Assembly: GCF_003018255.1 (NCBI RefSeq)
Contig: NZ_CP027440.1
DNA: 64,000 nucleotides
Direction: 5' to 3' (one strand)
Origin: Escherichia coli
GTDB taxonomy: Bacteria > Pseudomonadota > Gammaproteobacteria > Enterobacterales > Enterobacteriaceae
Below the pieces are notes generated by a model. It was not told the DNA's origin and made no database searches. It saw only the letters and a list, made by a program, of their open reading frames with translations. Numbering within the stretch: position 1 is the stretch's first letter; every line of letters starts with the position of its first letter. Shown piece after piece: positions 8,921 through 22,889 of the stretch. A program made the translations under genes and the position numbers.

Positions 8921-10186
8921 ATGCTCACGAAAAAGAAATGGGCGTTATTTAGTCTATTAACATTGTGTGGCGGTACAATTTATAAATTACCGTCTCTGAA
9001 AGATGCGTTTTATATCCCGATGCAGGAATATTTCCATTTGACCAATGGTCAAATTGGTAATGCTATGTCGGTAAACTCATTTGTCACCACAGTGGGCTTT
9101 TTTCTGTCTATTTATTTTGCCGATAAACTACCGCGCAGATACACCATGTCATTCTCACTCATTGCGACAGGATTACTGGGTGTTTATTTGACGACAATGC
9201 CGGGGTATTGGGGCATCCTCTTTGTCTGGGCGCTATTTGGCGTTACTTGCGACATGATGAACTGGCCGGTCTTGCTCAAGTCGGTAAGTCGATTGGGCAA
9301 TAGCGAACAACAAGGTCGGTTGTTTGGCTTCTTCGAAACAGGGCGTGGCATTGTCGATACCGTGGTGGCATTTTCTGCGTTGGCAGTATTTACCTGGTTT
9401 GGCAGTGGCTTATTGGGTTTTAAAGCAGGCATCTGGTTCTATTCCCTTATTGTGATTGCCGTAGGCATTATCATTTTCTTTGTCCTGAATGACAAAGAAG
9501 AGGCACCGTCCGTTGAGGTGAAAAAAGAAGACGGAGCATCGCAAAACACCAGTATGACCTCGGTGCTGAGAGATAAAACCATCTGGCTTATCGCTTTCAA
9601 CGTCTTCTTCGTTTACGCGGTTTACTGTGGCCTAACATTCTTCATTCCATTCCTGAAAAACATCTATCTATTGCCCGTTGCTCTGGTGGGGGCTTACGGC
9701 ATCATTAACCAATACTGTCTGAAAATGATTGGAGGACCGATTGGTGGCATGATTTCAGATAAGATCCTGAAATCGCCGAGTAAATATCTATGCTACACCT
9801 TTATCATAAGTACCGCTGCGCTCGTACTGTTGATTATGCTGCCGCACGAAAGTATGCCGGTCTATTTAGGGATGGCATGTACGCTGGGCTTTGGCGCTAT
9901 AGTCTTCACACAGCGAGCCGTATTTTTTGCACCTATCGGCGAAGCAAAAATTGCTGAAAATAAAACAGGCGCGGCGATGGCGTTGGGTAGCTTTATTGGT
10001 TACGCCCCGGCGATGTTCTGCTTCAGTCTGTATGGCTACATTCTGGATTTAAATCCGGGGATTATTGGCTACAAAATCGTGTTTGGCATTATGGCCTGCT
10101 TCGCATTCTGTGGTGCGGTGGTTTCCGTAATGCTGGTTAAGCGTATTAGCCAACGTAAGAAAGAGATGCTGGCGGCTGAAGCTTAA
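8921..10186 (+). CDS. yihN: MFS transporter YihN
   Basis: 421-aa ORF, highly hydrophobic with a 12-TM pattern and a GGGG RBS. Matches K-12 YihN. Confidence 0.9.
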   Translation: MLTKKKWALFSLLTLCGGTIYKLPSLKDAFYIPMQEYFHLTNGQIGNAMSVNSFVTTVGFFLSIYFADKLPRRYTMSFSLIATGLLGVYLTTMPGYWGILFVWALFGVTCDMMNWPVLLKSVSRLGNSEQQGRLFGFFETGRGIVDTVVAFSALAVFTWFGSGLLGFKAGIWFYSLIVIAVGIIIFFVLNDKEEAPSVEVKKEDGASQNTSMTSVLRDKTIWLIAFNVFFVYAVYCGLTFFIPFLKNIYLLPVALVGAYGIINQYCLKMIGGPIGGMISDKILKSPSKYLCYTFIISTAALVLLIMLPHESMPVYLGMACTLGFGAIVFTQRAVFFAPIGEAKIAENKTGAAMALGSFIGYAPAMFCFSLYGYILDLNPGIIGYKIVFGIMACFAFCGAVVSVMLVKRISQRKKEMLAAEA

Positions 10187-10245: not shown

Positions 10246-11034
10246 TCAGGATACTTCTTGCTCGGCAACCACCAGTTCAACATTCTCTTCACTTAACAAC
10301 TGGCAGAAAGAATTGGGAGGCGGGGCATCAGTAAAAAAAGCCCTGACATTCCGTGCATTGCCAATTGAAACGGCAGCAGACGCGGTAAACTTCGTATGAT
10401 CGGCCACTAACAATGTATTCCGCGCATGTTTAATCATCGTTCTCGCGACTAACGCTTCATTGACATCAAATTCCAGTAGGGTGCCGTCATGTTCAATGGC
10501 ACCTATACTGGTGATTAAATAATCTGCGCGGAAGCCTTCAATAAAATCCACGGCTCCTGGGCCGATAATCCCACCGTTATGAGCGCGTAAAGTGCCTCCC
10601 GGCACCATCACTTCAATATCCTGATTCTTATAAAGAATCTGTGCCACACGCAGGCTATTAGTGATAATGCGTAAATCACGCCGGTTGAGTAATGCCCTGG
10701 CAACGGCTTCTACGGTTGTACCGATGGTGATAAAGACGGTACAGCGTTCGGGAAGGTAATCGGCGACTGCCTCAGCGATCGCCCGTTTCTCGGCGGTGAG
10801 CGAAAGTTCCCGTTGCTCAAAAGCGGTATTCATGACGCTGGAGACGCGCCCGGCCCCTCCATGATGACGGGTGATCAAGCCCTGCTCACTGAGTTTTCGG
10901 ATATCCCGGCGCACGGTTTGCGTTGAAACATCCAGCAGTTGTGCCAGTTCTTCAATATTCATATAACCGCGTTCTGCGATTAGATGAACGAGTTGGTCAT
11001 GGCGTGGATTACCTGTCACTTCGATGATACTCAT
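10246..11034 (-). CDS. DeoR-family transcriptional repressor, divergent homologue of CsqR/YihW
   Basis: 262-aa ORF with a GGGAG RBS. The N-terminal HTH (NIEELAQLLDVSTQTVRRDIRKLSEQGLITRHHGG) is nearly identical to K-12 YihW, while the C-terminal sugar-phosphate-binding domain is more divergent. Overall identity is roughly 70-75 percent from memory. Confidence 0.9.
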   Translation of the reverse strand: MSIIEVTGNPRHDQLVHLIAERGYMNIEELAQLLDVSTQTVRRDIRKLSEQGLITRHHGGAGRVSSVMNTAFEQRELSLTAEKRAIAEAVADYLPERCTVFITIGTTVEAVARALLNRRDLRIITNSLRVAQILYKNQDIEVMVPGGTLRAHNGGIIGPGAVDFIEGFRADYLITSIGAIEHDGTLLEFDVNEALVARTMIKHARNTLLVADHTKFTASAAVSIGNARNVRAFFTDAPPPNSFCQLLSEENVELVVAEQEVS

Positions 11035-11073
11035 GAATACTCCCTTGCCCCTCCTCGGTAGATGTTTACCATT

Positions 11074-11970
11074 TTACGCATAAAGTGACAAAAATGATTC
11101 GGTTTGCTCACGATTAGGAATGCCGGCCCGACCGCCAGGCTGGGTACATTTCATCGCGGCAACCGCACTGGCAAAACGAATAGCCTCTTTTGTTGGCATT
11201 TTTTCTGCCAACGCTACCGCGAGTGCGCCGTGAAAAACATCGCCTGCTCCAGTGGTATCAACCACATTGACAGAAAATGCCTCCTGTTGACACAAATGAC
11301 CATCTTCAATCCACAACGATCCTTCAGAACCCAGCGTAACATACACTTTACCTGCTGTTTGTGTCGTTGCCTGGAACAAACCTTCTTCAGGTGACTGCAG
11401 GCCAGTCATGCGTTTCAGCCCAGGTGTTGAGAACACGGCGTGATCGGCAAGCGCGACAAGTGGAGAAATATCCTGCGGTGTCATATCGGCGTCTAAAAGC
11501 GTTGTCACACCCGCAAGGCGCGCTAGCGAGAATGCTTTTTCAGTACCGCTATGCCAGCGAACATCGGCCAGAATCAGATCATAACGAGAGAAATCGATCG
11601 CTTCTAACCATTCGGCATCAGTACCGAGATCAGGACTTGGATAATTAACGATAATCCGTTCGCCATGCTGATCAACGAGGATCGCTGATTGCGACGAACG
11701 GGCGTTAGGATATCGGCGGCAAAATGCGGTATTGACGCCCCAACCCTCAAGTTCTGCAAGTAAGGTATTTCCACAACTGTCATCGCCGACGCGACCGATG
11801 AAATCAACCTCCACGCCAAGCTTTGCGATTGCAACAGCGGCTGTTGCTGCCGGGCCGCCACCAATCTCAAGATAATGATTTGCCTGATATTTCCCGCCGC
11901 CCTCCGGCAGAGTGGGCAAAGAATAAATCCTGTCCTGAACTGTGATACCCACGCATGCAATTCTGGTCAT
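11074..11970 (-). CDS. PfkB-family sugar kinase, divergent homologue of sulfofructose kinase YihV
   Basis: ORF 11074-12021. I place the start at MTRIACVGI (ATG at 11968-11970), giving 298 aa as in YihV. The motifs [17 protein letters not shown] and [12 protein letters not shown] are shared with K-12 YihV, at roughly 65 percent identity from memory. Confidence 0.88.
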
Positions 11971-12142
11971 ATTTGTCTTGTCCTGTTTAATTTTGTCGTC
12001 TTTGGTCAATTTAAATGACACAAATGATCAAATTAGTGATGCGTGTCGTGTTTTTGAACATAAATTACAAATATGCTCAAAAACAGACGAAAACGAATTT
12101 TCAATTGTCATTATTTTGTCAATGTCAGACAGGAGAGTATTC
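11971..12142. promoter_or_regulatory. AT-rich divergent control region between the kinase-regulator operon and the reductase-aldolase operon
   Basis: 172 bp with no ORF. Five same-orientation TTGTC pentamers are present (11973, 11978, 11993, 12105, 12116). No operator can be assigned from the sequence alone. Confidence 0.45.
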
Positions 12143-13021
12143 ATGGCAACCATTGCATTTCTCGGGCTGGGGCAGATGGGTAGCCCAATGGCTAACAATC
12201 TATTGCAAAAAGGGCATTCATTGCAGGTATTTGATGTCAATGCACAGGCCGTCGATGTGCTAGTTACGCAGGGGGCCACTGCGGCACAAACCCCAGCGGA
12301 AGCAGCAGCAGGCGCTGAATTTATCATCACTATGCTTCCCAATGGTGACATTGTTCGACAGGTTCTGTTGGGGGAAAAAGGCGTCTGTGAGGCTGTTTCA
12401 TCTGACGCGTTATTGATTGATATGTCGACTATTCATCCCTTACAGACCGATGCATTAATACGGGAGTTACAAGAAAAAGGCATCAGTATGATGGACGCTC
12501 CCGTGGGCAGAACGTCCGTGAATGCGATTGATGGCACATTGCTGATTTTAGCGGGTGGCACTGATGAGCAGATTGCACGTGCACGCCCGATTCTCATGTG
12601 CATGGGTAATGAACTGGTCGAGGCTGGCGGCCCAGGAATGGGGATCCGCGTGAAGCTAATTAACAACTATATGAGCATTGCGCTTAATGCGCTGTCCTCC
12701 GAGGCCGCTGTGTTATGTGAGTCACTGGGATTAAATCTTGATGTCGCAATTAAGGTGATGAGTGGTACGGCAGCAGGGAAAGGACATTTTACGACCACCT
12801 GGCCTGGCAAAGTGCTGAAAGGCGATCTTTCACCCGCCTTCATGGTGGATCTGGCGTTGAAAGATCTGCGTATTGCAGTTGACGTCGCTCGGGAGACGGG
12901 GGCACCGCTCAATATGGGGATTGCAGCAGAAAGTTATTACGCCGCAGCAAGTCAAGACGGCAAAGGGCGGCAGGATTGGAGTGCCCTGCTAAATCAGGTT
13001 CGCCAGCAGGCTGGTCTTTAA
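12143..13021 (+). CDS. NAD(P)-dependent beta-hydroxyacid dehydrogenase family, divergent homologue of sulfolactaldehyde reductase YihU
   Basis: ORF 11942-13021. I place the start at [17 protein letters not shown] (ATG at 12143, AGGAGA RBS at 12131). The segments PVGRTS and [19 protein letters not shown] are shared with K-12 YihU. Confidence 0.88.
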
Positions 13022-13045
13022 TTTTATCTATTAACAGGAGTTTCT

Positions 13046-13933
13046 ATGTCATCCCACTTCACCCCATTTACGCTGAAAGATATCTCCCGCCCAGGTGGTG
13101 GATTCGCCATGTTAGCTGTCGATCAGCGTGAGGCCATGCGCCTGATGTTTGCGGCAGCAGGGCAGCCAAAACCCATCGCCGACAGTGTACTCACCGATTT
13201 TAAAGTTGCCGCGACCCGAATCCTTTCTCCTTATGCTTCTGCCGTTCTGGCGGATAAACAATTTTGTCTTGAACAAATAGTCGAGCAGGGCGCTGTGGCT
13301 AATTCTTGCGGCCTGATTGTCGCTGCCGATCTTTTTATCCCAGGTAATGGCATCCCGGTTGATAGCGTTGAAATAGATATGTCCGTCGACCCGCATAAAG
13401 CCCGTGAAATGGGGGCTAAGGCAATGAAATTACTTGTACTCTGGCGTGAAGATGAACCCGCAGAGGAACGTCTGGCAATGGTTGATAAATTTGTTCGTCG
13501 CTGCCGTAGTGCCGGGCTGGTTAGCATTATTGAACCTGTGGTGCGTCCACCTCGTCGCGGTTGGGACTTTGATCGTGAAAGCGCCATTGTTGCCGCCGCC
13601 GCAGAGCTTGGTGGAACAGAGGCTGATCTTTACAAAGCCGAGATGCCATTAGGGGGCAAAGGCGATGAAAAAACCTTACTTGCCGCCTGTCAGCAACTTA
13701 ACGATCAGATGAAGATGCCGTGGGTAATTCTTTCTTCTGGCGTTGATGCCGATATTTTTGGCCGTGCAGTAAGTATTGCCATGAAAGGTGGTGCGTCGGG
13801 CTTCCTGGCTGGACGAGCGGTATGGGCGTCGGTTGTTGGTGCACAAGATCCACAAACCATGCTGCGCGATGTCTCCGTTCCACGCTTGCAACGGCTGGCT
13901 GAAATTGTCGATGAAGGTATCGCGCAACGCTAA
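13046..13933 (+). CDS. LacD-family class I aldolase, divergent homologue of sulfofructose-phosphate aldolase YihT
   Basis: 295-aa ORF with an AGGAG RBS. The segments [41 protein letters not shown] and [17 protein letters not shown] are shared with K-12 YihT. Confidence 0.88.
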
Positions 13934-13965
13934 TCCCCTATGGATATCGATTCTGGAGAATAACA

Positions 13966-14976
13966 ATGGATAAAATTACCCAGGTTTTATTTTCAGATAT
14001 TGGGAAAGTCACCACTCAATATGTTGAAGTACCACACCAGCAACTTAAACCGCACGAAGTACGGATTGCGCCCGTGTTCTACGGGATATGCGGTTCGGAT
14101 CTGCATGTTCTGAAAGGCGGTCATCCGTTTGCCAAGCCGCCTGTCGTCCCCGGTCATGAAATTGCAGCGCGCGTTACGGAAGTGGGCAGCGACGTTAAAA
14201 ATGTACAGCCGGGCGATCATGTTGTGGTCGATCCCATCATGGCTTGCATGGAATGCCGAGCCTGCAAAGCAGGACGTTTTAATCTTTGTGAACCACCGCA
14301 GGTTGCTGGTTTTCGCGCACCGGGCTTTGCTCGCTCACAACACATTGTTCCTGCGCGTAATTGCCATGTCGCACCAGCCTCTTTACCGCTAAAAGTGTTG
14401 GCCTTTGCCGAACCGGCGGCTTGTGCTCGTCACTGCGTTAACCGAATGCCGAAAGCTTCTCTGGAAAGCGTACTGGTGATTGGTGCCGGAACGATAGGCT
14501 TATCCATCGTGCAGGCACTGCGCATTATGGGGGCAGGTAAGATTACCGTGATTGAACCTGACGCTGCCAAACGCGCGCTGGCGTTAAAGCTGGGCGCAGC
14601 AGAAGTTTGGGCACCAGGTGAGCTGGCCGCAGATGTGAGATTTACGGGGGCGATTGATGTCGTTGCAGCGCAGGCCACGCTTAACGATGCATGTACCCGT
14701 GTATATGCCGGAGGCACCGTCGTGTGCATGGGCGTACCAAGTGGGCCGCGTGAAATACCATTACCGATGATGCAACGTTTCGAGCGTGACTTGCTCAACT
14801 CTGGCATGTACATCCCTGAAGATTTCGATGCTGTTATCGAATGGCTGGCGGATGGGCGGTTTGATACCAGTGAACTGGTTACCGATTTATTTGCCATTGA
14901 GGATGCAGCGGCGGCATTCGAACGCGCGCAGCAAAATGACTCCATAAAGGTCATGCTGCAATTTGCGCCGGAATGA
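13966..14976 (+). CDS. Zn-dependent medium-chain (polyol/threonine dehydrogenase-type) NAD-dependent dehydrogenase
   Basis: 336-aa ORF with a GGAG RBS. Catalytic Zn ligands are present (GICGSDLH, PGHE, AEP), along with the structural Zn motif CMECRACKAGRFNLC and the Rossmann motif GAGTIG followed by an acidic residue (VIEPD). K-12 has no counterpart at this locus. Confidence 0.88.
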   Translation: MDKITQVLFSDIGKVTTQYVEVPHQQLKPHEVRIAPVFYGICGSDLHVLKGGHPFAKPPVVPGHEIAARVTEVGSDVKNVQPGDHVVVDPIMACMECRACKAGRFNLCEPPQVAGFRAPGFARSQHIVPARNCHVAPASLPLKVLAFAEPAACARHCVNRMPKASLESVLVIGAGTIGLSIVQALRIMGAGKITVIEPDAAKRALALKLGAAEVWAPGELAADVRFTGAIDVVAAQATLNDACTRVYAGGTVVCMGVPSGPREIPLPMMQRFERDLLNSGMYIPEDFDAVIEWLADGRFDTSELVTDLFAIEDAAAAFERAQQNDSIKVMLQFAPE

Positions 14977-15045
14977 TTTTCTAAATCTCTGTCTGGCGCT
15001 GCGTCACGTCAGCGCCACCCTACAACAATTAAAAAGGACACTGCG

Positions 15046-16479
15046 ATGAGTCAAATCACCAGTCCTGCAACTTATTCAATTAGTCGGCCACAGGACGTAA
15101 TTGATATTGTTAATAAGAACTCTGCAATCAACACCAGTATCGGCGTTATTTTTATTGCTTTGGGCGGCATATTGATTGATGCCTACCAGGTGGCGATGGT
15201 GGGGTTTGGTAATAAATACATTGCCGCTCAATTCGGCATTTCTCCGGGTCTTGCTGCGACCGTCAATGCGTCAGTATTAATCGCCGCGTTAATTGGCGGT
15301 TTATTAGCGAACCGAGTAATAAACCGCTTTGGGCAAAAGCGGGCATTTATTATTGGCATGGGGCTGTGCACCATCGGTGCTGCAGCGGTAGCTATTGCTC
15401 CCAGTATCTGGTGGGTGCTGGTGTGCCGCGTCATCATGGGCTTTGGTTTAGGCATCGACTTCCCTTTGGCAACTAATGCCGTGGCAGAGCTTCGTGGTTC
15501 AACGTCGAAGAAAACCGGAACGTCGGTCAACCTCTGGCAAATGGCCTGGTATGTTTCGACAACCGTTGTTTATTTGGTGCTTTTGCCGCTGCTTCTGTCG
15601 GGTATCGCTGAAGAACAATTGTGGCGTTACGGAATATTCATCGGAGCTATTTTTGCAGTCATCTTCATGATTTTGCGTTACTTCTTTATTGGTGAATCCG
15701 CAATGTGGGCCGCACGCGTTGGGCGTTACCAGGAAGCGTGCGACATTCTGGGAAAACGTTATGGTGTTCAGGCTCGCGTTGCGGCATCGGGTACAACAGA
15801 AGCGAAATTCTCGGAAAAAGCAGAGAATAAATACAGTGGTGGATATGGCATCTTATTTAATGATCGTTACCGCAAACGCACCATTCTTGGCTGTGTCGTG
15901 GCAACCATGCAGGCGTGGCAATATAACGCCGTAGGTGTTTATCTTCCTCTTACGTTGGCGGGAATAATAAGTGGCGGGCTTACTGGCGCGTTGACCGGTT
16001 CTGCCGTCGTGAATGCCCTTTGTGGGGTGACAGGTGGGATGATCGGCTCGTTTATTCTCCAACGACTGGGTACTCGCCGACAGTCGATGTATGGATTTGC
16101 TGTTGTGACCTTAGCATTGCTGTCGTTAGGCGCACTGGCAACGACTAATCCTTGGCTGTCTTTAGGGTTATTGGGATCAATTATTTTCTTCCATTCAGCG
16201 GGTCCTGGTGGGCTGGGCATGACCATTGCCACACTCTCTTATCCTCCCGCTATTCGCCCTACTGGGGTCGGATTTGCCCGCGCTATTATGCGCACAGGGG
16301 CAATTGCAGGACTCATTTTCTGGCCGATGCTGTGGGGTGCGTTGAAAACTGAAGCGTTTTACTGGTTGGCAATCGTGCCATTCCTGGGATTCCTAACCTG
16401 TGTATTGATTAATTGGGAACCACTGGGTGCAAATGTTGATGCTGAGGACGCAGAGGTTCTGGCTGAATTGAAGAAATAA
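15046..16479 (+). CDS. MFS transporter, sugar-porter-like family
   Basis: 477-aa ORF with an AAGGA RBS. It has 12 predicted hydrophobic segments, the motif-A-like RFGQKR, and the sugar-porter-like ESAMWAARVGRYQEA. Confidence 0.85.
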   Translation: MSQITSPATYSISRPQDVIDIVNKNSAINTSIGVIFIALGGILIDAYQVAMVGFGNKYIAAQFGISPGLAATVNASVLIAALIGGLLANRVINRFGQKRAFIIGMGLCTIGAAAVAIAPSIWWVLVCRVIMGFGLGIDFPLATNAVAELRGSTSKKTGTSVNLWQMAWYVSTTVVYLVLLPLLLSGIAEEQLWRYGIFIGAIFAVIFMILRYFFIGESAMWAARVGRYQEACDILGKRYGVQARVAASGTTEAKFSEKAENKYSGGYGILFNDRYRKRTILGCVVATMQAWQYNAVGVYLPLTLAGIISGGLTGALTGSAVVNALCGVTGGMIGSFILQRLGTRRQSMYGFAVVTLALLSLGALATTNPWLSLGLLGSIIFFHSAGPGGLGMTIATLSYPPAIRPTGVGFARAIMRTGAIAGLIFWPMLWGALKTEAFYWLAIVPFLGFLTCVLINWEPLGANVDAEDAEVLAELKK

Positions 16480-16480
16480 T

Positions 16481-16514
16481 TTAATGCGCATCGGCTTAAG
16501 CCGATGCGCATTAA
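16481..16514 (+). terminator. Perfect 34-nt palindrome (15-bp stem, 4-nt loop) between the two MFS genes
   Basis: TTAATGCGCATCGGC-TTAA-GCCGATGCGCATTAA, starting 2 nt after the stop of the first MFS gene. There is no T-tract, so it could be an attenuator, an mRNA-stabilising hairpin, or a terminator. Confidence 0.5.
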
Positions 16515-16577
16515 TTCAAACTGCCCACGTTTAGTGGTTCGTATCCCAGATTTCTCGCCTACCAGGAGAGGAAAATT

Positions 16578-17927
16578 ATGTCTGAAAAGTTACCCGCACC
16601 GCGTGAAGGGCTTTCCGGTAAAGCCATGAGACGTGTCGTTATGGGCAGTTTCGCAGGCGCGTTAATGGAATGGTATGACTTCTTTATTTTTGGCACGGCA
16701 GCAGGACTGGTATTTGCACCGCTGTTTTATCCAGACAGCGATCCTTTTATAGGTCTTATAGCTTCCTTTGCGACCTTTGGTGTCGGTTTTCTGACTCGTC
16801 CTTTAGGGGGCATCGTCTTTGGTCATTTTGGCGATAAAATCGGGCGAAAAATAACACTTATCTGGACGCTGGCTATTGTCGGTTGCTCCACATTTTTGAT
16901 TGGTTTTATTCCGACGTATCAGGAAATTGGCATTTGGGCACCGCTTGTATTAATGGTGCTGCGTTTGATTCAGGGCTTTGGTCTTGGTGGCGAGTACGGT
17001 GGAGCGGCATTGATGACCATAGAATCAGCGCCCGAATCCCGACGCGGATTTTTAGGTTCACTCCCGCAAACGGCTGCGTCTGTGGGTATTATGCTGGCAA
17101 CCGGTATTTTTGCTCTCTGTAACCATTTTCTTACTTCGGAGCAGTTTCTCTCCTGGGGATGGCGCATTCCGTTTTGGCTTTCTGCGGTGATGTTGATCGT
17201 TGGGCTGTTTATCCGCCTACATACCGAAGAAACGCTGGATTTTCAAAAGCAAAAAACGACGAATAATAAAGAAAAGTCCGTTCCTCCGTTGATTGAATTA
17301 TTCAAAAAACATCCACGAAATATTTTATTGGCACTGGGTGCGAGGCTGGCGGAAAGTGTCTCCTCTAATATTATTAATGCCTTTGGTATTGTCTATATTT
17401 CCAGCCAATTAGCATTGTCGCGAGATATTCCCCTGACGGGTATGTTGATTGCCTCGGCGATCGGTATTTTCAGTTGTCCATTGGTTGGATGGTTATCAGA
17501 TCGTATAGGTCAAAAAAGTCTGTATTTGTCGGGAGCAGGATTTTGTGTCCTGTTCGCGTTTCCTTTCTTCTTATTATTGGATAGCAAAAGTACGCTCATC
17601 ATCTGGTGCAGTATGATCCTCGGCTACAACTTAGGTCCGACGATGATGTTTGCCGTGCAGCCAACACTTTTCACCCGCATGTTCGGTACCAAAGTACGAT
17701 ATACCGGCCTTTCTTTTGCTTATCAATTTTCCGCGATTCTTGGCGGACTAAGCCCCCTTATCGCCTCAAGTTTGCTGGCGCTAGGGGGAGGAAAACCGTG
17801 GTATGTCGCTCTGTTTTTATTTGCTGTCTCAGTTCTTTCCTTTGTTTGCGTCTGGCTGATTGAGCCGACCGATGAACAAGAAACCGCTTCTTACCGCTAC
17901 ATCAGGGAACAATCTCATGAAAACTGA
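16578..17927 (+). CDS. MFS transporter, metabolite:H+ symporter (MHS; ProP/KgtP/ShiA-like) family
   Basis: 449-aa ORF with an AGGAGAGGA RBS. The N-terminus RRVVMGSFAGALMEWYDFFIFG and the segment GHFGDKIGRK are typical of MHS-family organic-acid and metabolite symporters. Confidence 0.85.
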   Translation: MSEKLPAPREGLSGKAMRRVVMGSFAGALMEWYDFFIFGTAAGLVFAPLFYPDSDPFIGLIASFATFGVGFLTRPLGGIVFGHFGDKIGRKITLIWTLAIVGCSTFLIGFIPTYQEIGIWAPLVLMVLRLIQGFGLGGEYGGAALMTIESAPESRRGFLGSLPQTAASVGIMLATGIFALCNHFLTSEQFLSWGWRIPFWLSAVMLIVGLFIRLHTEETLDFQKQKTTNNKEKSVPPLIELFKKHPRNILLALGARLAESVSSNIINAFGIVYISSQLALSRDIPLTGMLIASAIGIFSCPLVGWLSDRIGQKSLYLSGAGFCVLFAFPFFLLLDSKSTLIIWCSMILGYNLGPTMMFAVQPTLFTRMFGTKVRYTGLSFAYQFSAILGGLSPLIASSLLALGGGKPWYVALFLFAVSVLSFVCVWLIEPTDEQETASYRYIREQSHEN

Positions 17928-18804
17928 ACGAAAAAACGAGCATTACCTGGCGCTACAACAGGCGTTTGACGCGCCATGGCCTGGGCCTGTAGGAGAGTTA
18001 GTGATGCTGGAAAAAGGCAATATTCACCTGCAGATTTATCCGCATGATGGTGCCAGGATAACCTCGTTAAAGGCATTTGGTTCTGAAGTATTACGCCAAT
18101 GGCAGCCGCAGCGCAGAGCTTTTCAGTATGGCTGTTTCCCAATGGTGCCGTGGGCAGGGCGACTGGGGAATGCGACGCTGAATGCTGGTGGGCAATGTTA
18201 TTCTTTACCCGCCAATAAACCACCACATGCGTTGCATGGTATGGCTTGTTACTCAACGTGGGAAATCATCGACAAAACAGCAGATTCCCTGACTTTACGT
18301 ATGCCCCTGGCTTCACCGTGGCCCTGGCAAGGGGAAGTGATTCAGACTTTTTTGCTGGAGAACGATGCGCTGGTTTTGCAACTGGAAGTCCATTCATATG
18401 CCGATACATTCCCGGCCTCCGCAGGCTGGCATCCGTGGTTTGCGAAAAAGCTGACTCCGCAAAATACAGAATCGTTGCAGGTGCTTTTTGATGCGGACTG
18501 GCAAGAAGAAGCGGGTAGTGATGAACTGCCAACTGGAAATCGTATCTCTCCTCAAGTCGGTCCCTGGGATGACTGTTTTGGTTTTTATGACGGGGTGAAG
18601 GTTAAGTTACTGTGGCCTGGTAAACTCGCGATGACCATGACCTCTTCTGCAAACAGTCTGGTGGTATTTGATAAACAGCCCGATGCCACCTGTATTAACC
18701 CGCTGACTCAGGCACCTAACGCAATAAATCTAACGCCGGAATTTGTGACACCAGATAAGCCGCTGGTCATCGAAACTCGTTGGCAATTTACACCTGAATC
18801 TTAA
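17917..18804 (+). CDS. Aldose 1-epimerase (mutarotase) family protein, distant from K-12 YihR
   Basis: ORF 17860-18804. I prefer the ATG at 17917, which overlaps the upstream MFS stop by 11 nt. GalM-type motifs are present (FPMVPWAGR, HALHG, AGWHPWF). The start is uncertain and 17860 is possible. Confidence 0.8.
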   Translation: MKTERKNEHYLALQQAFDAPWPGPVGELVMLEKGNIHLQIYPHDGARITSLKAFGSEVLRQWQPQRRAFQYGCFPMVPWAGRLGNATLNAGGQCYSLPANKPPHALHGMACYSTWEIIDKTADSLTLRMPLASPWPWQGEVIQTFLLENDALVLQLEVHSYADTFPASAGWHPWFAKKLTPQNTESLQVLFDADWQEEAGSDELPTGNRISPQVGPWDDCFGFYDGVKVKLLWPGKLAMTMTSSANSLVVFDKQPDATCINPLTQAPNAINLTPEFVTPDKPLVIETRWQFTPES

Positions 18805-18944: not shown

Positions 18945-19544
18945 ATGCTCTATATCTTTGATTTAGGTAATGTGATTGTCGATATCGACTTTAACCGTGT
19001 GCTGGGGGCCTGGAGCGATTTAACGCGTGTTCCACTGGCTACGCTTAAGAAGAGTTTCCACATGGGCGAGGCGTTTCATCAGCATGAGCGTGGGGAAATT
19101 AGCGACGAAGCGTTCGCAGAGGCGCTGTGTCATGAGATGGCCCTGCCGCTAAGCTACGAGCAGTTCTCTCACGGCTGGCAGGCGGTGTTTGTCGCGCTGC
19201 GCCCGGAAGTGATCGCCATCATGCATAAACTGCGTGAGCAGGGGCATCGCGTGGTGGTGCTTTCCAATACCAACCGCCTGCATACCACCTTCTGGCCGGA
19301 AGAATATCCGGAAATTCGTGATGCTGCTGACCATATCTATCTGTCGCAAGATCTGGGGATGCGCAAACCCGAAGCACGAATTTACCAGCATGTTTTGCAG
19401 GCGGAAGGTTTTTCACCAGACGATACGGTCTTTTTCGACGATAACGCCGATAATATAGAAGGAGCTAATCGGCTAGGCATTACTAGTATTCTGGTGAAAG
19501 ATAAAACCACCATCCCGGACTATTTCGCGAAGGTGTTATGCTAA
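18945..19544 (+). CDS. yihX: HAD-family alpha-D-glucose-1-phosphate phosphatase YihX
   Basis: ORF 18924-19544. I place the start at [10 protein letters not shown] (ATG at 18945, AAGGAGG RBS), giving the 199-aa K-12 length. The HAD motif DLGNV is present. Confidence 0.93.
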
Positions 19545-21893: not shown

Positions 21894-22814
21894 TTACCTT
21901 CCCGCTCTCCAGGCAACATCCCGTAGCGCCGATCGCGCAGCCTCGCTGATACCACCTAACTGAAAAAATCCGTGGATAACGCCAAGGTAGCGTTGGCAGG
22001 TGCATTGCACTCCTTGCCCTGTCATGCGGTGATACAACGCTTCACCTTCATCGCAAAGTGGGTCGTATTCAGCGGTAATGATATGTACAGGTGGCAAGCC
22101 ATTGAAATCATCGCGCCAAAGAGGGCTGGCTTCAGGATGCCTGCGTTCAATGCCTGGCAGGTACATCTCAAAGCCGCTCAGTAAAGTGTCGCGTGTGATG
22201 ATGTAATCGTGACCATTGCGTATGTAGCTTTCGAAATGCGCAGTCGCATCAAGCATGGGATAAATTAAGATGAGTTGTGCTGGTTGCCACTCGCCAGCAC
22301 GCTTCAATCGCAAAGCAGTTACCAGCGCCAGATGCCCTCCCGCACTGTCACCGGCAAGAGTTATTCGTTGTTTATCAACGCCGAGTCGTTCGGCGTGTTG
22401 CCGGACTAATTCTGCACCTCGTTGTGCATCATCATGGGCGGCGGGGAAAGTATGTTCCGGTGCCAGCCGATACTGGACGGCAATAATCCGACATTGCCCG
22501 TAATAGGCTAACTGGCGCAGCTGGTTGTCGTGAGTTGCGAACCCGCCGCTAACAAAACAGCCACCGTAGTAATAAATTATCGTCGGGAGTAATGTCGGGG
22601 CATTCAGCGGTGACACTATTCGTAAGGTCATCCCTTCAAGTTCGATAGTCTGAATATCTACCCGCGTTTCTGTCTCACCCGCAAGGACAGCGCTGGCGAT
22701 ATAGCCCTCTCTGCGCTGCGTAATACTTTGTTGGCGCGATGAGGGGCGACCCGCAGCGATAAACTCTTCGACTAACTCTGCAATTCCTTTTTCCAGTGCC
22801 ATAGTAGAACTCAT
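21894..22814 (-). CDS. alpha/beta-hydrolase, hormone-sensitive-lipase (Aes-like) family esterase
   Basis: ORF 21894-22877 with a GTG start. More likely starts are the ATG at 22814 (MSSTMALEKG) or at 22802. It has the nucleophile elbow GDSAGG, DPLCDEG (Asp) and HGFF (His). The oxyanion motif reads YGGC instead of the usual HGGG. I do not remember this gene at this locus in K-12. Confidence 0.82.
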   Translation of the reverse strand: MSSTMALEKGIAELVEEFIAAGRPSSRQQSITQRREGYIASAVLAGETETRVDIQTIELEGMTLRIVSPLNAPTLLPTIIYYYGGCFVSGGFATHDNQLRQLAYYGQCRIIAVQYRLAPEHTFPAAHDDAQRGAELVRQHAERLGVDKQRITLAGDSAGGHLALVTALRLKRAGEWQPAQLILIYPMLDATAHFESYIRNGHDYIITRDTLLSGFEMYLPGIERRHPEASPLWRDDFNGLPPVHIITAEYDPLCDEGEALYHRMTGQGVQCTCQRYLGVIHGFFQLGGISEAARSALRDVAWRAGR

Positions 22815-22889
22815 TTTGCTGTATGAATGTACAGTTTTATACACCCGTTTTTGCTGGATGGATACAGGGAAATTCACGGGCGTGAAAAA

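Follow-up and report, generated by a model that had tools for sequence, protein, structure and literature searches.

An eight-gene module at the yihN-yihX locus of Escherichia coli and a predicted dehydrogenase-entry route into sulfoglycolysis

INTRODUCTION

The sulfo-EMP pathway of Escherichia coli K-12 is encoded by ompL-yihOPQRSTUVW (Denger et al. 2014; Sharma et al. 2021). In the K-12 chromosome, ompL-yihOPQRSTU lie on one strand of the yihN-yihX interval and yihV-csqR (csqR being yihW) on the other, with csqR adjoining yihX. We have analyzed the corresponding interval in a 64,000-nucleotide stretch of E. coli DNA (contig NZ_CP027440.1 of RefSeq assembly GCF_003018255.1), referred to below as the window. 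Positions 10246–18804 hold an inverted, eight-gene module whose regulator, kinase, aldolase and reductase are homologous to those of K-12 (67–73% identity, with identical sulfonate pockets), but which has a zinc-dependent, NAD-type dehydrogenase, two unrelated major facilitator superfamily (MFS) transporters and an epimerase-fold protein where K-12 has a sulfoquinovosidase, the isomerase YihS, GPH transporters and a porin. The divergent promoter region and the chromosomal site are common to both. We argue that the module probably specifies a functional sulfo-EMP-type route in which the dehydrogenase serves as the entry enzyme for a non-glycosidic C6 sulfonate.

Hybrid clusters of the sulfo-EMP1/2 type, in Yersinia aldovae and Hafnia paralvei (PMC10665668), share the left-half architecture of the module, with a regulator and kinase divergent from a reductase and aldolase. 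In Y. aldovae the aldolase gene is followed by genes for an epimerase, an SqvD-type isomerase, a GH31 sulfoquinovosidase, two GPH transporters and a KdgM porin, whereas the dehydrogenase and two MFS genes stand there in the module. A January 2026 review lists seven sulfoglycolytic pathways (sulfo-EMP, EMP2, ED, TAL, TK, ASMO and ASDO). No dehydrogenase-initiated route appears in reviews up to that date, and the literature that we searched contained neither sulfoquinovose (SQ) or sulfofructose reductases nor any sulfoglycolysis by a zinc dehydrogenase.

Polymorphism at this locus in E. coli has already been published. Kaznadzey et al. 2025 (PMC12608037) distinguished 'long' and 'short' yihTUVW cassettes, the short form being inverted at the same site, present in Nissle 1917, enriched in pathogens and scattered over the E. 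coli tree. Its location, flanks, inversion and regulator (72% identical to CsqR) are those of the module in the window. It was, however, counted as four genes, treated as a truncation that is probably not catabolic and suggested to have lost SQ degradation, whereas we find eight genes that are conserved across phyla and maintained by selection. The zinc dehydrogenase, the two MFS transporters and the epimerase-like gene are unmentioned in the text and supplement of that study, and the UPEC and ExPEC literature that we searched was uninformative on the cluster. As far as we have found, the eight-gene extent, the conservation across phyla, the displacement of the aldolase in some lineages, the purifying selection and the hypothesis of dehydrogenase entry are unpublished.

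RESULTS AND DISCUSSION

An inverted module with a different upper half

The gene content of the module is given by the open reading frame (ORF) listing of the window and by the RefSeq annotation of the identical cluster in E. coli ATCC 25922, which agree on eight intact genes between yihN and yihX. Family assignments are from Pfam and NCBIfam model searches, and identities are from BLASTP comparisons with K-12 proteins. A DeoR-family repressor homologous to CsqR/YihW (10246–11034, minus strand) and a PfkB-family kinase (minus strand) are transcribed divergently from a reductase, a class I aldolase, the zinc dehydrogenase, a first MFS transporter (MFS-A), a second (MFS-B) and the aldose-1-epimerase-fold protein, all on the plus strand. 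The unit is inverted, because the regulator adjoins yihN here and yihX in K-12. An earlier note, made from the sequence alone, had described the eight genes, the flipped orientation and the K-12 layout, and inspection of both intervals bears it out on each point. Its estimate that the regulator, kinase, reductase and aldolase are 65–75% identical to their K-12 counterparts was also accurate; the measured values are 71.5% (CsqR), 67.3% (YihV), 72.6% (YihU) and 66.7% (YihT).

A tblastn search with all K-12 yih proteins found no homologue of OmpL, YihO, YihP, YihQ or YihS in the whole window. The same note had proposed that the entire upper pathway was swapped. This stands for the sulfoquinovosidase YihQ, the isomerase YihS, the transporters YihO/YihP and the porin OmpL, but not for the mutarotase family, of which the epimerase-like protein is a distant member (27% identical to YihR). 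Set against the definition of sulfo-EMP, the module has the kinase, aldolase and reductase and is without the isomerase and the sulfoquinovosidase (GH31 or NAD-dependent), the latter being a common though not invariable component of such clusters. Judged by its enzymes, it should work like sulfo-EMP from sulfofructose onward, and it falls outside the described sulfo-EMP1, EMP2 and hybrid types.

Lower-pathway enzymes with sulfonate-specific pockets

The kinase (11074–11970), predicted to be a sulfofructose 1-kinase of the YihV type, conserves the sulfonate-binding triad K27-N109-R138 together with D13, S95, D162 and the catalytic D244, according to the pocket and catalytic residues defined by Sharma et al. 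2021. It scores 434 bits against the solved sulfofructose kinase 7AG6 and 181 bits against the second-best match. Its start is placed at the ATG at 11970, in agreement with RefSeq and with the YihV alignment, so that the longer GTG-initiated ORF from 12021 is unnecessary. The aldolase (13046–13933, plus strand) has the class I DeoC/LacD fold and is a predicted sulfofructose-1-phosphate (SFP) aldolase of the YihT type. Its Schiff-base lysine K193 and residues S226, S227, R253 and A26 are conserved, as they are in eight other module aldolases. The reductase (12143–13021, plus strand) belongs to the HIBADH-type (beta-hydroxyacid dehydrogenase) family and conserves R123, N174 and S178. It scores 580 bits against the NCBIfam equivalog for sulfolactaldehyde (SLA) 3-reductase (NF012005, cut-off 348) and 453 bits against the SLA reductase 6SM7, with 162 bits for the second-best match. 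Every published pocket residue is therefore conserved in all three enzymes, as expected from the earlier proposal that the module keeps the lower pathway of YihV, YihT and YihU, and the lower pathway is, on these alignments, predicted to be sulfonate-specific. Because the kinase and aldolase keep all residues that contact sulfofructose and SFP in the crystal structures, the ligands of the C3 and C4 hydroxyls among them, the intermediate is very probably sulfofructose.

It is very unlikely, in light of these active sites, that the cluster has been mis-annotated as sulfoglycolytic and in fact serves a sugar or polyol that is neutral or carboxylated, such as tagatose, galactitol, a uronate or a compound of the ydj kind. 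Such a pathway would be in keeping with the gene logic, as a DeoR regulator, PfkB kinase, aldolase, zinc dehydrogenase and MFS transporter also recur in the gat, lac and ydj clusters, and the only NCBIfam models matched by the aldolase are those for tagatose-1,6-diphosphate aldolases, all below cut-off. In the kinase, however, the sulfonate triad stands where tagatose-6-phosphate kinases have a phosphate-binding motif. For the aldolase, the score is 416 bits against the SFP aldolase 7AG1 and about 49 bits against tagatose-bisphosphate aldolases, and the reductase passes the SLA reductase equivalog model. Thus the enzymes do not group with those of neutral sugars and have lost no sulfonate residues, and their scores are far nearer to the sulfoglycolytic structures than to ribokinase, tagatose-bisphosphate aldolase or tartronate-semialdehyde reductase.

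The E. coli ydj cluster deserves separate mention, since the earlier note had drawn attention to its resemblance to the module. The likeness is one of pathway logic, in which an anionic sugar is converted to a 2-ketose by redox chemistry and is then acted on by a 1-kinase and an aldolase. It does not extend to orthology with the YdjI aldolase, the YdjH kinase, the YdjJ/YdjL dehydrogenases or the YdjG reductase. The ydj cluster encodes a DeoR regulator, a PfkB kinase, a class II aldolase, two zinc dehydrogenases, an aldo-keto reductase and an MFS transporter, whereas the module has a class I (or SqiA-type class II) aldolase, a single dehydrogenase and no aldo-keto reductase.

The module in other bacteria and displacement of the aldolase

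Context look-ups and an ORF and BLAST survey identified the same module in at least 14 loci of Alpha-, Beta- and Gammaproteobacteria and Actinobacteria, in unrelated genomic surroundings. The alphaproteobacterial examples are from Rhodopseudomonas palustris BisB18, Roseospira, Rhodovastum and Pleomorphomonas, the actinobacterial ones from Streptomyces and Propionicimonas, and the gammaproteobacterial ones from Vibrio rhodolitus, Erwinia typographi, Citrobacter murliniae, Citrobacter sp. NCU1 and Budvicia. A gut Sutterella metagenome-assembled genome (MAG) represents the Betaproteobacteria, with the gene order of E. coli, and one further contig is from a metagenome. Protein identities range from 50 to 93% between E. 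coli and the Alphaproteobacteria, Betaproteobacteria and Actinobacteria. Five of the Rhodopseudomonas proteins (aldolase, dehydrogenase, MFS-A, MFS-B and epimerase) share 52–73% identity with those of E. coli. By these comparisons the eight genes are one conserved, mobile and presumably functional unit.

None of the 14 related loci examined contains a sulfoquinovosidase, an SQ isomerase (YihS, PF07221, or SqvD, PF02952), a GPH transporter or a porin, which fits the earlier suggestion that the entry substrate is probably not a sulfoquinovosyl glycoside. No GH31 or Gfo/Idh/MocA genes appear in the Pfam tables of the related loci, and in other taxa no additional gene that might reveal the substrate (a glycosidase, aldo-keto reductase or isomerase) was found beside the module.

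Replacement of the aldolase in some lineages bears on the reaction at this step. In Budvicia, Citrobacter NCU1, Vibrio and the contig L093, the class I aldolase is replaced by a class II enzyme. The Budvicia protein matches PDB entries 8Q57/8Q59 (E 4e-151) and is 78% identical to YaSqiA of Y. aldovae, and the class II module aldolase scores 505 bits against SqiA compared with 177 bits against YdjI of the ydj cluster. YaSqiA has been shown to cleave SFP (Sharma et al. 2023, PMC10665668). The displacement by an SqiA-type enzyme therefore argues that the aldolase step of the module is the cleavage of sulfofructose phosphate, and it counts further against a neutral-sugar pathway. The YaSqiA and HpSqiA clusters were themselves considered as members of the zinc-dehydrogenase type and rejected; that of Y. 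aldovae is a canonical SQ cluster, and the sole link is the 78% identity of the Budvicia aldolase.

The divergent control region between kinase and reductase (11971–12142) points in the same direction. Conserved blocks (AAATTACAAATA..ATCAAAAACAGAC and AGTGAYG..TGTC) also occur in the K-12 yihU/yihV intergenic region and in Y. aldovae, Erwinia and Budvicia. The regulator matches DeoR/GlpR family models, all below their equivalog cut-offs, and shares 83–93% identity with its counterparts in the Erwinia and Citrobacter modules. In electrophoretic mobility shift assays, the regulators of the short and long cassettes each bound both control regions (PMC12608037). Identity matrices place the Budvicia regulator, kinase and reductase nearer to the proteins of the K-12 and Y. 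aldovae SQ clusters than to those of the E. coli module. A single lower cassette thus combines with two alternative upper cassettes under a shared control region, which argues that both deliver sulfofructose.

A zinc dehydrogenase at the entry step

The dehydrogenase (13966–14976, plus strand) is the signature of the module and its predicted entry enzyme. It is a medium-chain (MDR) protein of the polyol-dehydrogenase kind with the Pfam domains ADH_N and ADH_zinc_N, and no NCBIfam model attains its cut-off. Orthologues with 55–93% identity span four bacterial classes and were found in Enterobacterales, Vibrio, Alphaproteobacteria and Actinobacteria. Among 17 orthologues, the catalytic zinc ligands C42, H64, E65 and E149, the structural zinc ligands C94, C97, C100 and C108 and the GxGxxG glycines G173, G175 and G178 are invariant, and E197, which fits a preference for NAD, is nearly so. 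The closest solved structure is RspB, which we take to be an L-gulonate 5-dehydrogenase forming fructuronate. RspB shares the superfamily and catalytic residues but is not orthologous (132 bits, about 30% identity). GatD, a galactitol-1-phosphate 5-dehydrogenase, is a second polyol enzyme of this superfamily, and the proposed entry chemistry would be the sulfonate analogue of the RspB and GatD reactions. Arg117, in a loop that aligns with the substrate-lining loop of sorbitol dehydrogenases, is invariant, and the arginine of the 'FRY' motif of those enzymes is absent; Arg117 is a weak lead for a family-specific anion-binding residue.

Variants of the module link the dehydrogenase to substrate entry. 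The minimal variants L014 and L015 keep it alongside the importer, kinase and aldolase, and a Prauserella variant consists of the regulator, kinase, aldolase, dehydrogenase and MFS-B alone, which argues that the dehydrogenase belongs to the entry step. In the related loci surveyed it never co-occurs with YihS/SqvD isomerases or sulfoquinovosidases.

The absence of a characterized close relative (132 bits being the best score to a solved homologue) leaves room for a different chemistry. The substrate might be another sulfonated or sulfated C6 compound, such as a keto-sulfosugar that is reduced to sulfofructose, or a sugar 6-sulfate ester. The unusual active site of the epimerase-fold subfamily, described below, would be compatible with such a compound, and neither of the two models discussed in the next sections accounts for all eight genes. 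We nevertheless consider it improbable, because the kinase and aldolase retain every contact to sulfofructose and SFP, and the pockets fit a sulfonate, which is shorter than a sulfate ester by one atom.

Transporters and the epimerase-fold protein

MFS-A (15046–16479, plus strand; Pfam Sugar_tr/MFS_1) has the Sugar_tr fold and shows no similarity to YihO or YihP by BLASTP or by tblastn over the window. MFS-B (16578–17927, plus strand) is a ShiA-like member of the metabolite:H+ symporter family that scores 407–410 bits against the metabolite:H+ symporter and shikimate transporter models of NCBIfam, both below cut-off, and it is present in every variant, including the minimal ones. In a variant from the Pseudomonas sp. 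UBA5706 MAG (L014, 6484–13833), the regulator, kinase, aldolase, dehydrogenase (44% identical) and MFS-B are kept, and a TauE/SafE-family exporter and an aldehyde dehydrogenase take the place of MFS-A and the reductase. From this co-variation we suggest export of dihydroxypropanesulfonate for MFS-A and import of the anionic substrate for MFS-B, and the replacement genes imply a version of the pathway that would produce sulfolactate.

A perfect palindrome with a 15-bp stem (16481–16514; TTAATGCGCATCGGC TTAA GCCGATGCGCATTAA) directly follows the MFS-A stop codon and ends about 60 bp before MFS-B. It is the strongest terminator-like match of the scan in this region and may function in termination, attenuation or RNA stability, either splitting the operon or stabilizing the upstream mRNA. 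The window between 16500 and 18000, covering MFS-B and the start of the epimerase-like gene, has a GC content of 0.45–0.48, compared with 0.49–0.54 elsewhere in the cluster. MFS-B and the epimerase-like protein are also 64–86% identical to their Erwinia and Citrobacter orthologues, compared with 72–93% for the other six proteins.

The epimerase-like gene (17917–18804, plus strand) begins within the 3′ end of MFS-B. Its product is a PF01263 protein (76.6 bits) that aligns with YihR over 164 residues (E 1e-10). The equivalents of GalM H104, H175 and D243 are kept, and the position of the catalytic Glu309 is occupied by Asn261. Of 110 subfamily members, 74 have N here, 35 have E and one has A, whereas R82, H107, H172 and D218 are invariant. 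The subfamily may therefore use another catalytic base, or it may not be a classical mutarotase. A role as sulfofructose mutarotase is unlikely, since sulfofructose mutarotates unaided in 26 s, compared with 299 min for SQ. The gene is absent from actinobacterial modules, as YihR is from the clusters of SQ-using Arthrobacter. A search among its homologues for a link to canonical SQ clusters added little further context; one lies in the full Sutterella module, a stand-alone copy in Streptomyces niveus is uninformative and many others come from taxa whose module had been found by other routes. Compared with strain EC361, the epimerase-like gene of the window has five nonsynonymous and no synonymous differences.

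A proposed pathway and the nature of its substrate

The scheme that we propose is built on computed observations (the gene content and families, the conserved pockets, the conservation of the module across phyla, the displacement of the aldolase and the purifying selection described below), from which we infer each enzymatic step, both directions of transport and the identity of the substrate. MFS-B would bring in a free, non-glycosidic, polyhydroxylated C6 sulfonate, and the dehydrogenase, standing in for both the sulfoquinovosidase and the SQ isomerase, would oxidize it with NAD+ to 6-deoxy-6-sulfofructose. The YihV-type kinase would then phosphorylate C1, and the YihT-type aldolase would generate dihydroxyacetone phosphate and sulfolactaldehyde. 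The YihU-type reductase would spend the NADH from the dehydrogenase step to form dihydroxypropanesulfonate, for export by MFS-A. The divergent promoters would be controlled by the CsqR-like repressor.

If a single NAD+-dependent oxidation is to yield sulfofructose, then a 6-deoxy-6-sulfohexitol is required as substrate, and we tentatively favor such a compound (reduced SQ, for example), oxidized at the carbon beside its free CH2OH end. The model for this step is the chemistry of L-gulonate 5-dehydrogenase and galactitol-1-phosphate 5-dehydrogenase, which give a ketose with a distal anionic group. The module would be redox-neutral, because the NADH from entry is used by the sulfolactaldehyde reductase.

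Several observations weigh against the sulfohexitol scheme. No sulfohexitol was found in the searchable literature under several name variants, and the roles of the four upper genes are assigned from sequence and context. The epimerase-fold gene is conserved in the proteobacterial modules, where it overlaps the importer gene, and an alditol substrate offers no explanation for it; given the mutarotation rates, a mutarotase is sensible only for an aldose. The Nissle regulator releases DNA upon addition of SQ in vitro, although weakly (PMC12608037). Finally, the kinase and reductase of the alphaproteobacterial and actinobacterial modules share only about 30% identity with YihV and YihU and are without the K-N-R triad, so that the lower pathway is less certain in those versions; the Rhodopseudomonas regulator, too, is only about 30% identical to that of the E. 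coli module.

Much of this would be accommodated if the substrate were a free sulfo-aldose (SQ released by other organisms, sulforhamnose or another epimer) and the dehydrogenase were a redox-neutral isomerase replacing YihS. MFS-B would import the sugar, the epimerase-fold protein would open or anomerize its ring, a hydride would pass from C2 to C1 by way of NAD (alternatively, reduction to the alditol would be followed by reoxidation), and sulfo-EMP would follow as usual. The mutarotase-family gene is kept and translationally coupled to the importer gene in 12 of the 12 proteobacterial modules, the slow mutarotation of SQ would make it useful and its absence from Actinobacteria parallels that of YihR. 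In addition, SQ is very abundant, whereas the searched literature contained no sulfohexitol, and the regulator is 72–78% identical to CsqR and responds to SQ in vitro. On the other hand, we know of no medium-chain zinc dehydrogenase that catalyzes a net aldose-ketose isomerization. SQ is mostly glycosidic, yet the module is never accompanied by a sulfoquinovosidase, and the canonical mutarotase glutamate is an asparagine in two thirds of the subfamily, including the E. coli protein.

Expression data from Nissle 1917 bear on the same question. The short cassette is not induced by SQ in this strain (PMC12608037). In the raw read counts of that study, the aldolase gene received 0 and 2 RNA-seq reads on glucose and 4 and 1 on SQ and the reductase gene 1 and 2 on glucose and 1 and 5 on SQ, compared with 150–350 reads for the aldolase and reductase genes of K-12 on SQ. 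The silence of the reductase-aldolase operon on SQ is evidence that the substrate of the module is not free SQ. Growth of Nissle on SQ was reported to equal that of K-12 (PMC12608037), as a sulfo-aldose substrate would allow. Constitutive expression would reconcile this growth with the lack of induction, but it is excluded by the raw reads. The Nissle transcriptome on SQ is starvation-like, with fad, glyoxylate-shunt and gluconeogenesis genes up (PMC12608037), which again speaks against SQ as the substrate. On balance we regard entry of a free sulfo-aldose, the chief rival model, as rather unlikely and retain oxidation of a sulfohexitol as the favored, if tentative, form of the pathway.

Distribution and selection in E. 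coli

Of 5426 complete E. coli genomes, 1325 (ATCC 25922 and ST131 among them) contain the whole interval by megablast and 3880 contain the K-12 cassette; the locus is dimorphic in E. coli. Kaznadzey et al. 2025 suggested that the short form is a truncated cassette, and one might consider the module a decaying or regulatory remnant of the SQ operon. It is silent on both glucose and SQ in Nissle, its repressor binds weakly at 37°C (PMC12608037), and some copies are frameshifted or deleted, such as MFS-A in E. coli 2002-3211 and fusion ORFs of the P0098 kind. Against this, all eight ORFs are intact in the window, in ATCC 25922 and in EC361, and the ratio of nonsynonymous to synonymous polymorphism (pN/pS) among E. 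coli copies is 0.06–0.07, which indicates that the genes are maintained by purifying selection. Conservation of eight genes at 50–93% protein identity across classes would be unexpected for a remnant. Nor is the module a truncation of the K-12 cassette, as it contains four genes that K-12 is without and its aldolase is nearer to that of Rhodopseudomonas (74%) than to YihT (67%). A remnant is thus highly improbable.

The MFS-A gene of E. coli 2002-3211 is annotated as frameshifted. Among metagenome and run assemblies we also observed chimeric ORFs (P0098, P0086, P0100 and P0102) that join part of the dehydrogenase (97–100% identical) to other domains. P0098 fuses ADH_N to Aldose_epim, as would result from deletion of both MFS genes, and in P0086, P0100 and P0102 the dehydrogenase part is joined to AraC, PTS or UbiA domains. 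These ORFs suggest occasional rearranged or decayed copies.

Chromosomal context

The module is bounded by core-genome genes that lie outside it, yihN on the left (8921–10186, plus strand; 99.3% identical to K-12 YihN) and yihX on the right (18945–19544, plus strand; 98% identical to K-12 YihX). By BLASTP, the flanking proteins YihL, YihM, YihN, YihX, YihY, Dtd and FabY are 98–100% identical to their K-12 counterparts, as near to identity as the earlier note had them, and K-12-type genomes align to the interval over only about 50 bases at either edge. In C. murliniae (CP163158.1, L008, 6267–14865), the eight-gene module, with proteins 72–93% identical to those of E. coli, also lies between yihN and yihX, so that an alternative cassette is common to more than one genus at a single chromosomal site. 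The aldolase and both MFS ORFs of this copy look shortened, which may reflect frameshifts or sequencing errors. The genes travel together in other genera, and this, with the short edge matches of K-12-type genomes, the C. murliniae locus and the dimorphism in E. coli, sustains the original interpretation of a xenologous replacement.

We considered yihLMN as possible members of the module and rejected them, as they are absent from some cluster-bearing E. coli and from all non-enterobacterial modules. In E. coli 2002-3211 (NZ_CP101305.1, L095, 1–1003), the regulator gene lies about 100 bp from typA/bipA and yihL-yihM-yihN are missing. In some cluster-bearing E. coli, including one ST131 genome, the match begins at query base 46. 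A further strain-specific difference follows fabY, where the window has a gene for a 327-residue alpha/beta-hydrolase (21894–22877, minus strand; so annotated in ATCC 25922) and the K-12 interval has yiiE and yiiF.

Implications

Sulfoglycolysis is a major route of the sulfur cycle, and in the gut it feeds hydrogen sulfide production via dihydroxypropanesulfonate. In about a quarter of complete E. coli genomes, medically important and probiotic lineages among them, the module takes the place of the textbook operon, and genome-scale models and 'sulfoquinovose degradation' annotations of those strains are therefore probably wrong. The published view of a truncated, inactive cassette likely overlooks a working pathway. 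One possibility, which we advance with more reserve than the sulfohexitol substrate itself, is that the module represents a new sulfoglycolytic entry route ('sulfo-EMP3') whose first enzyme is a zinc- and NAD-dependent dehydrogenase. Its substrate would be a sulfonated hexitol or a comparable reduced sulfosugar, a compound hitherto undescribed among natural products. If this is correct, then an unrecognized and widely available organosulfonate would exist in soil, water and gut, with E. coli B2 lineages (ST131, Nissle 1917 and ATCC 25922), gut Sutterella and free-living Proteobacteria and Actinobacteria as its users. Confirmation of the predicted entry step could uncover both a new natural sulfonate and a new gut source of dihydroxypropanesulfonate.

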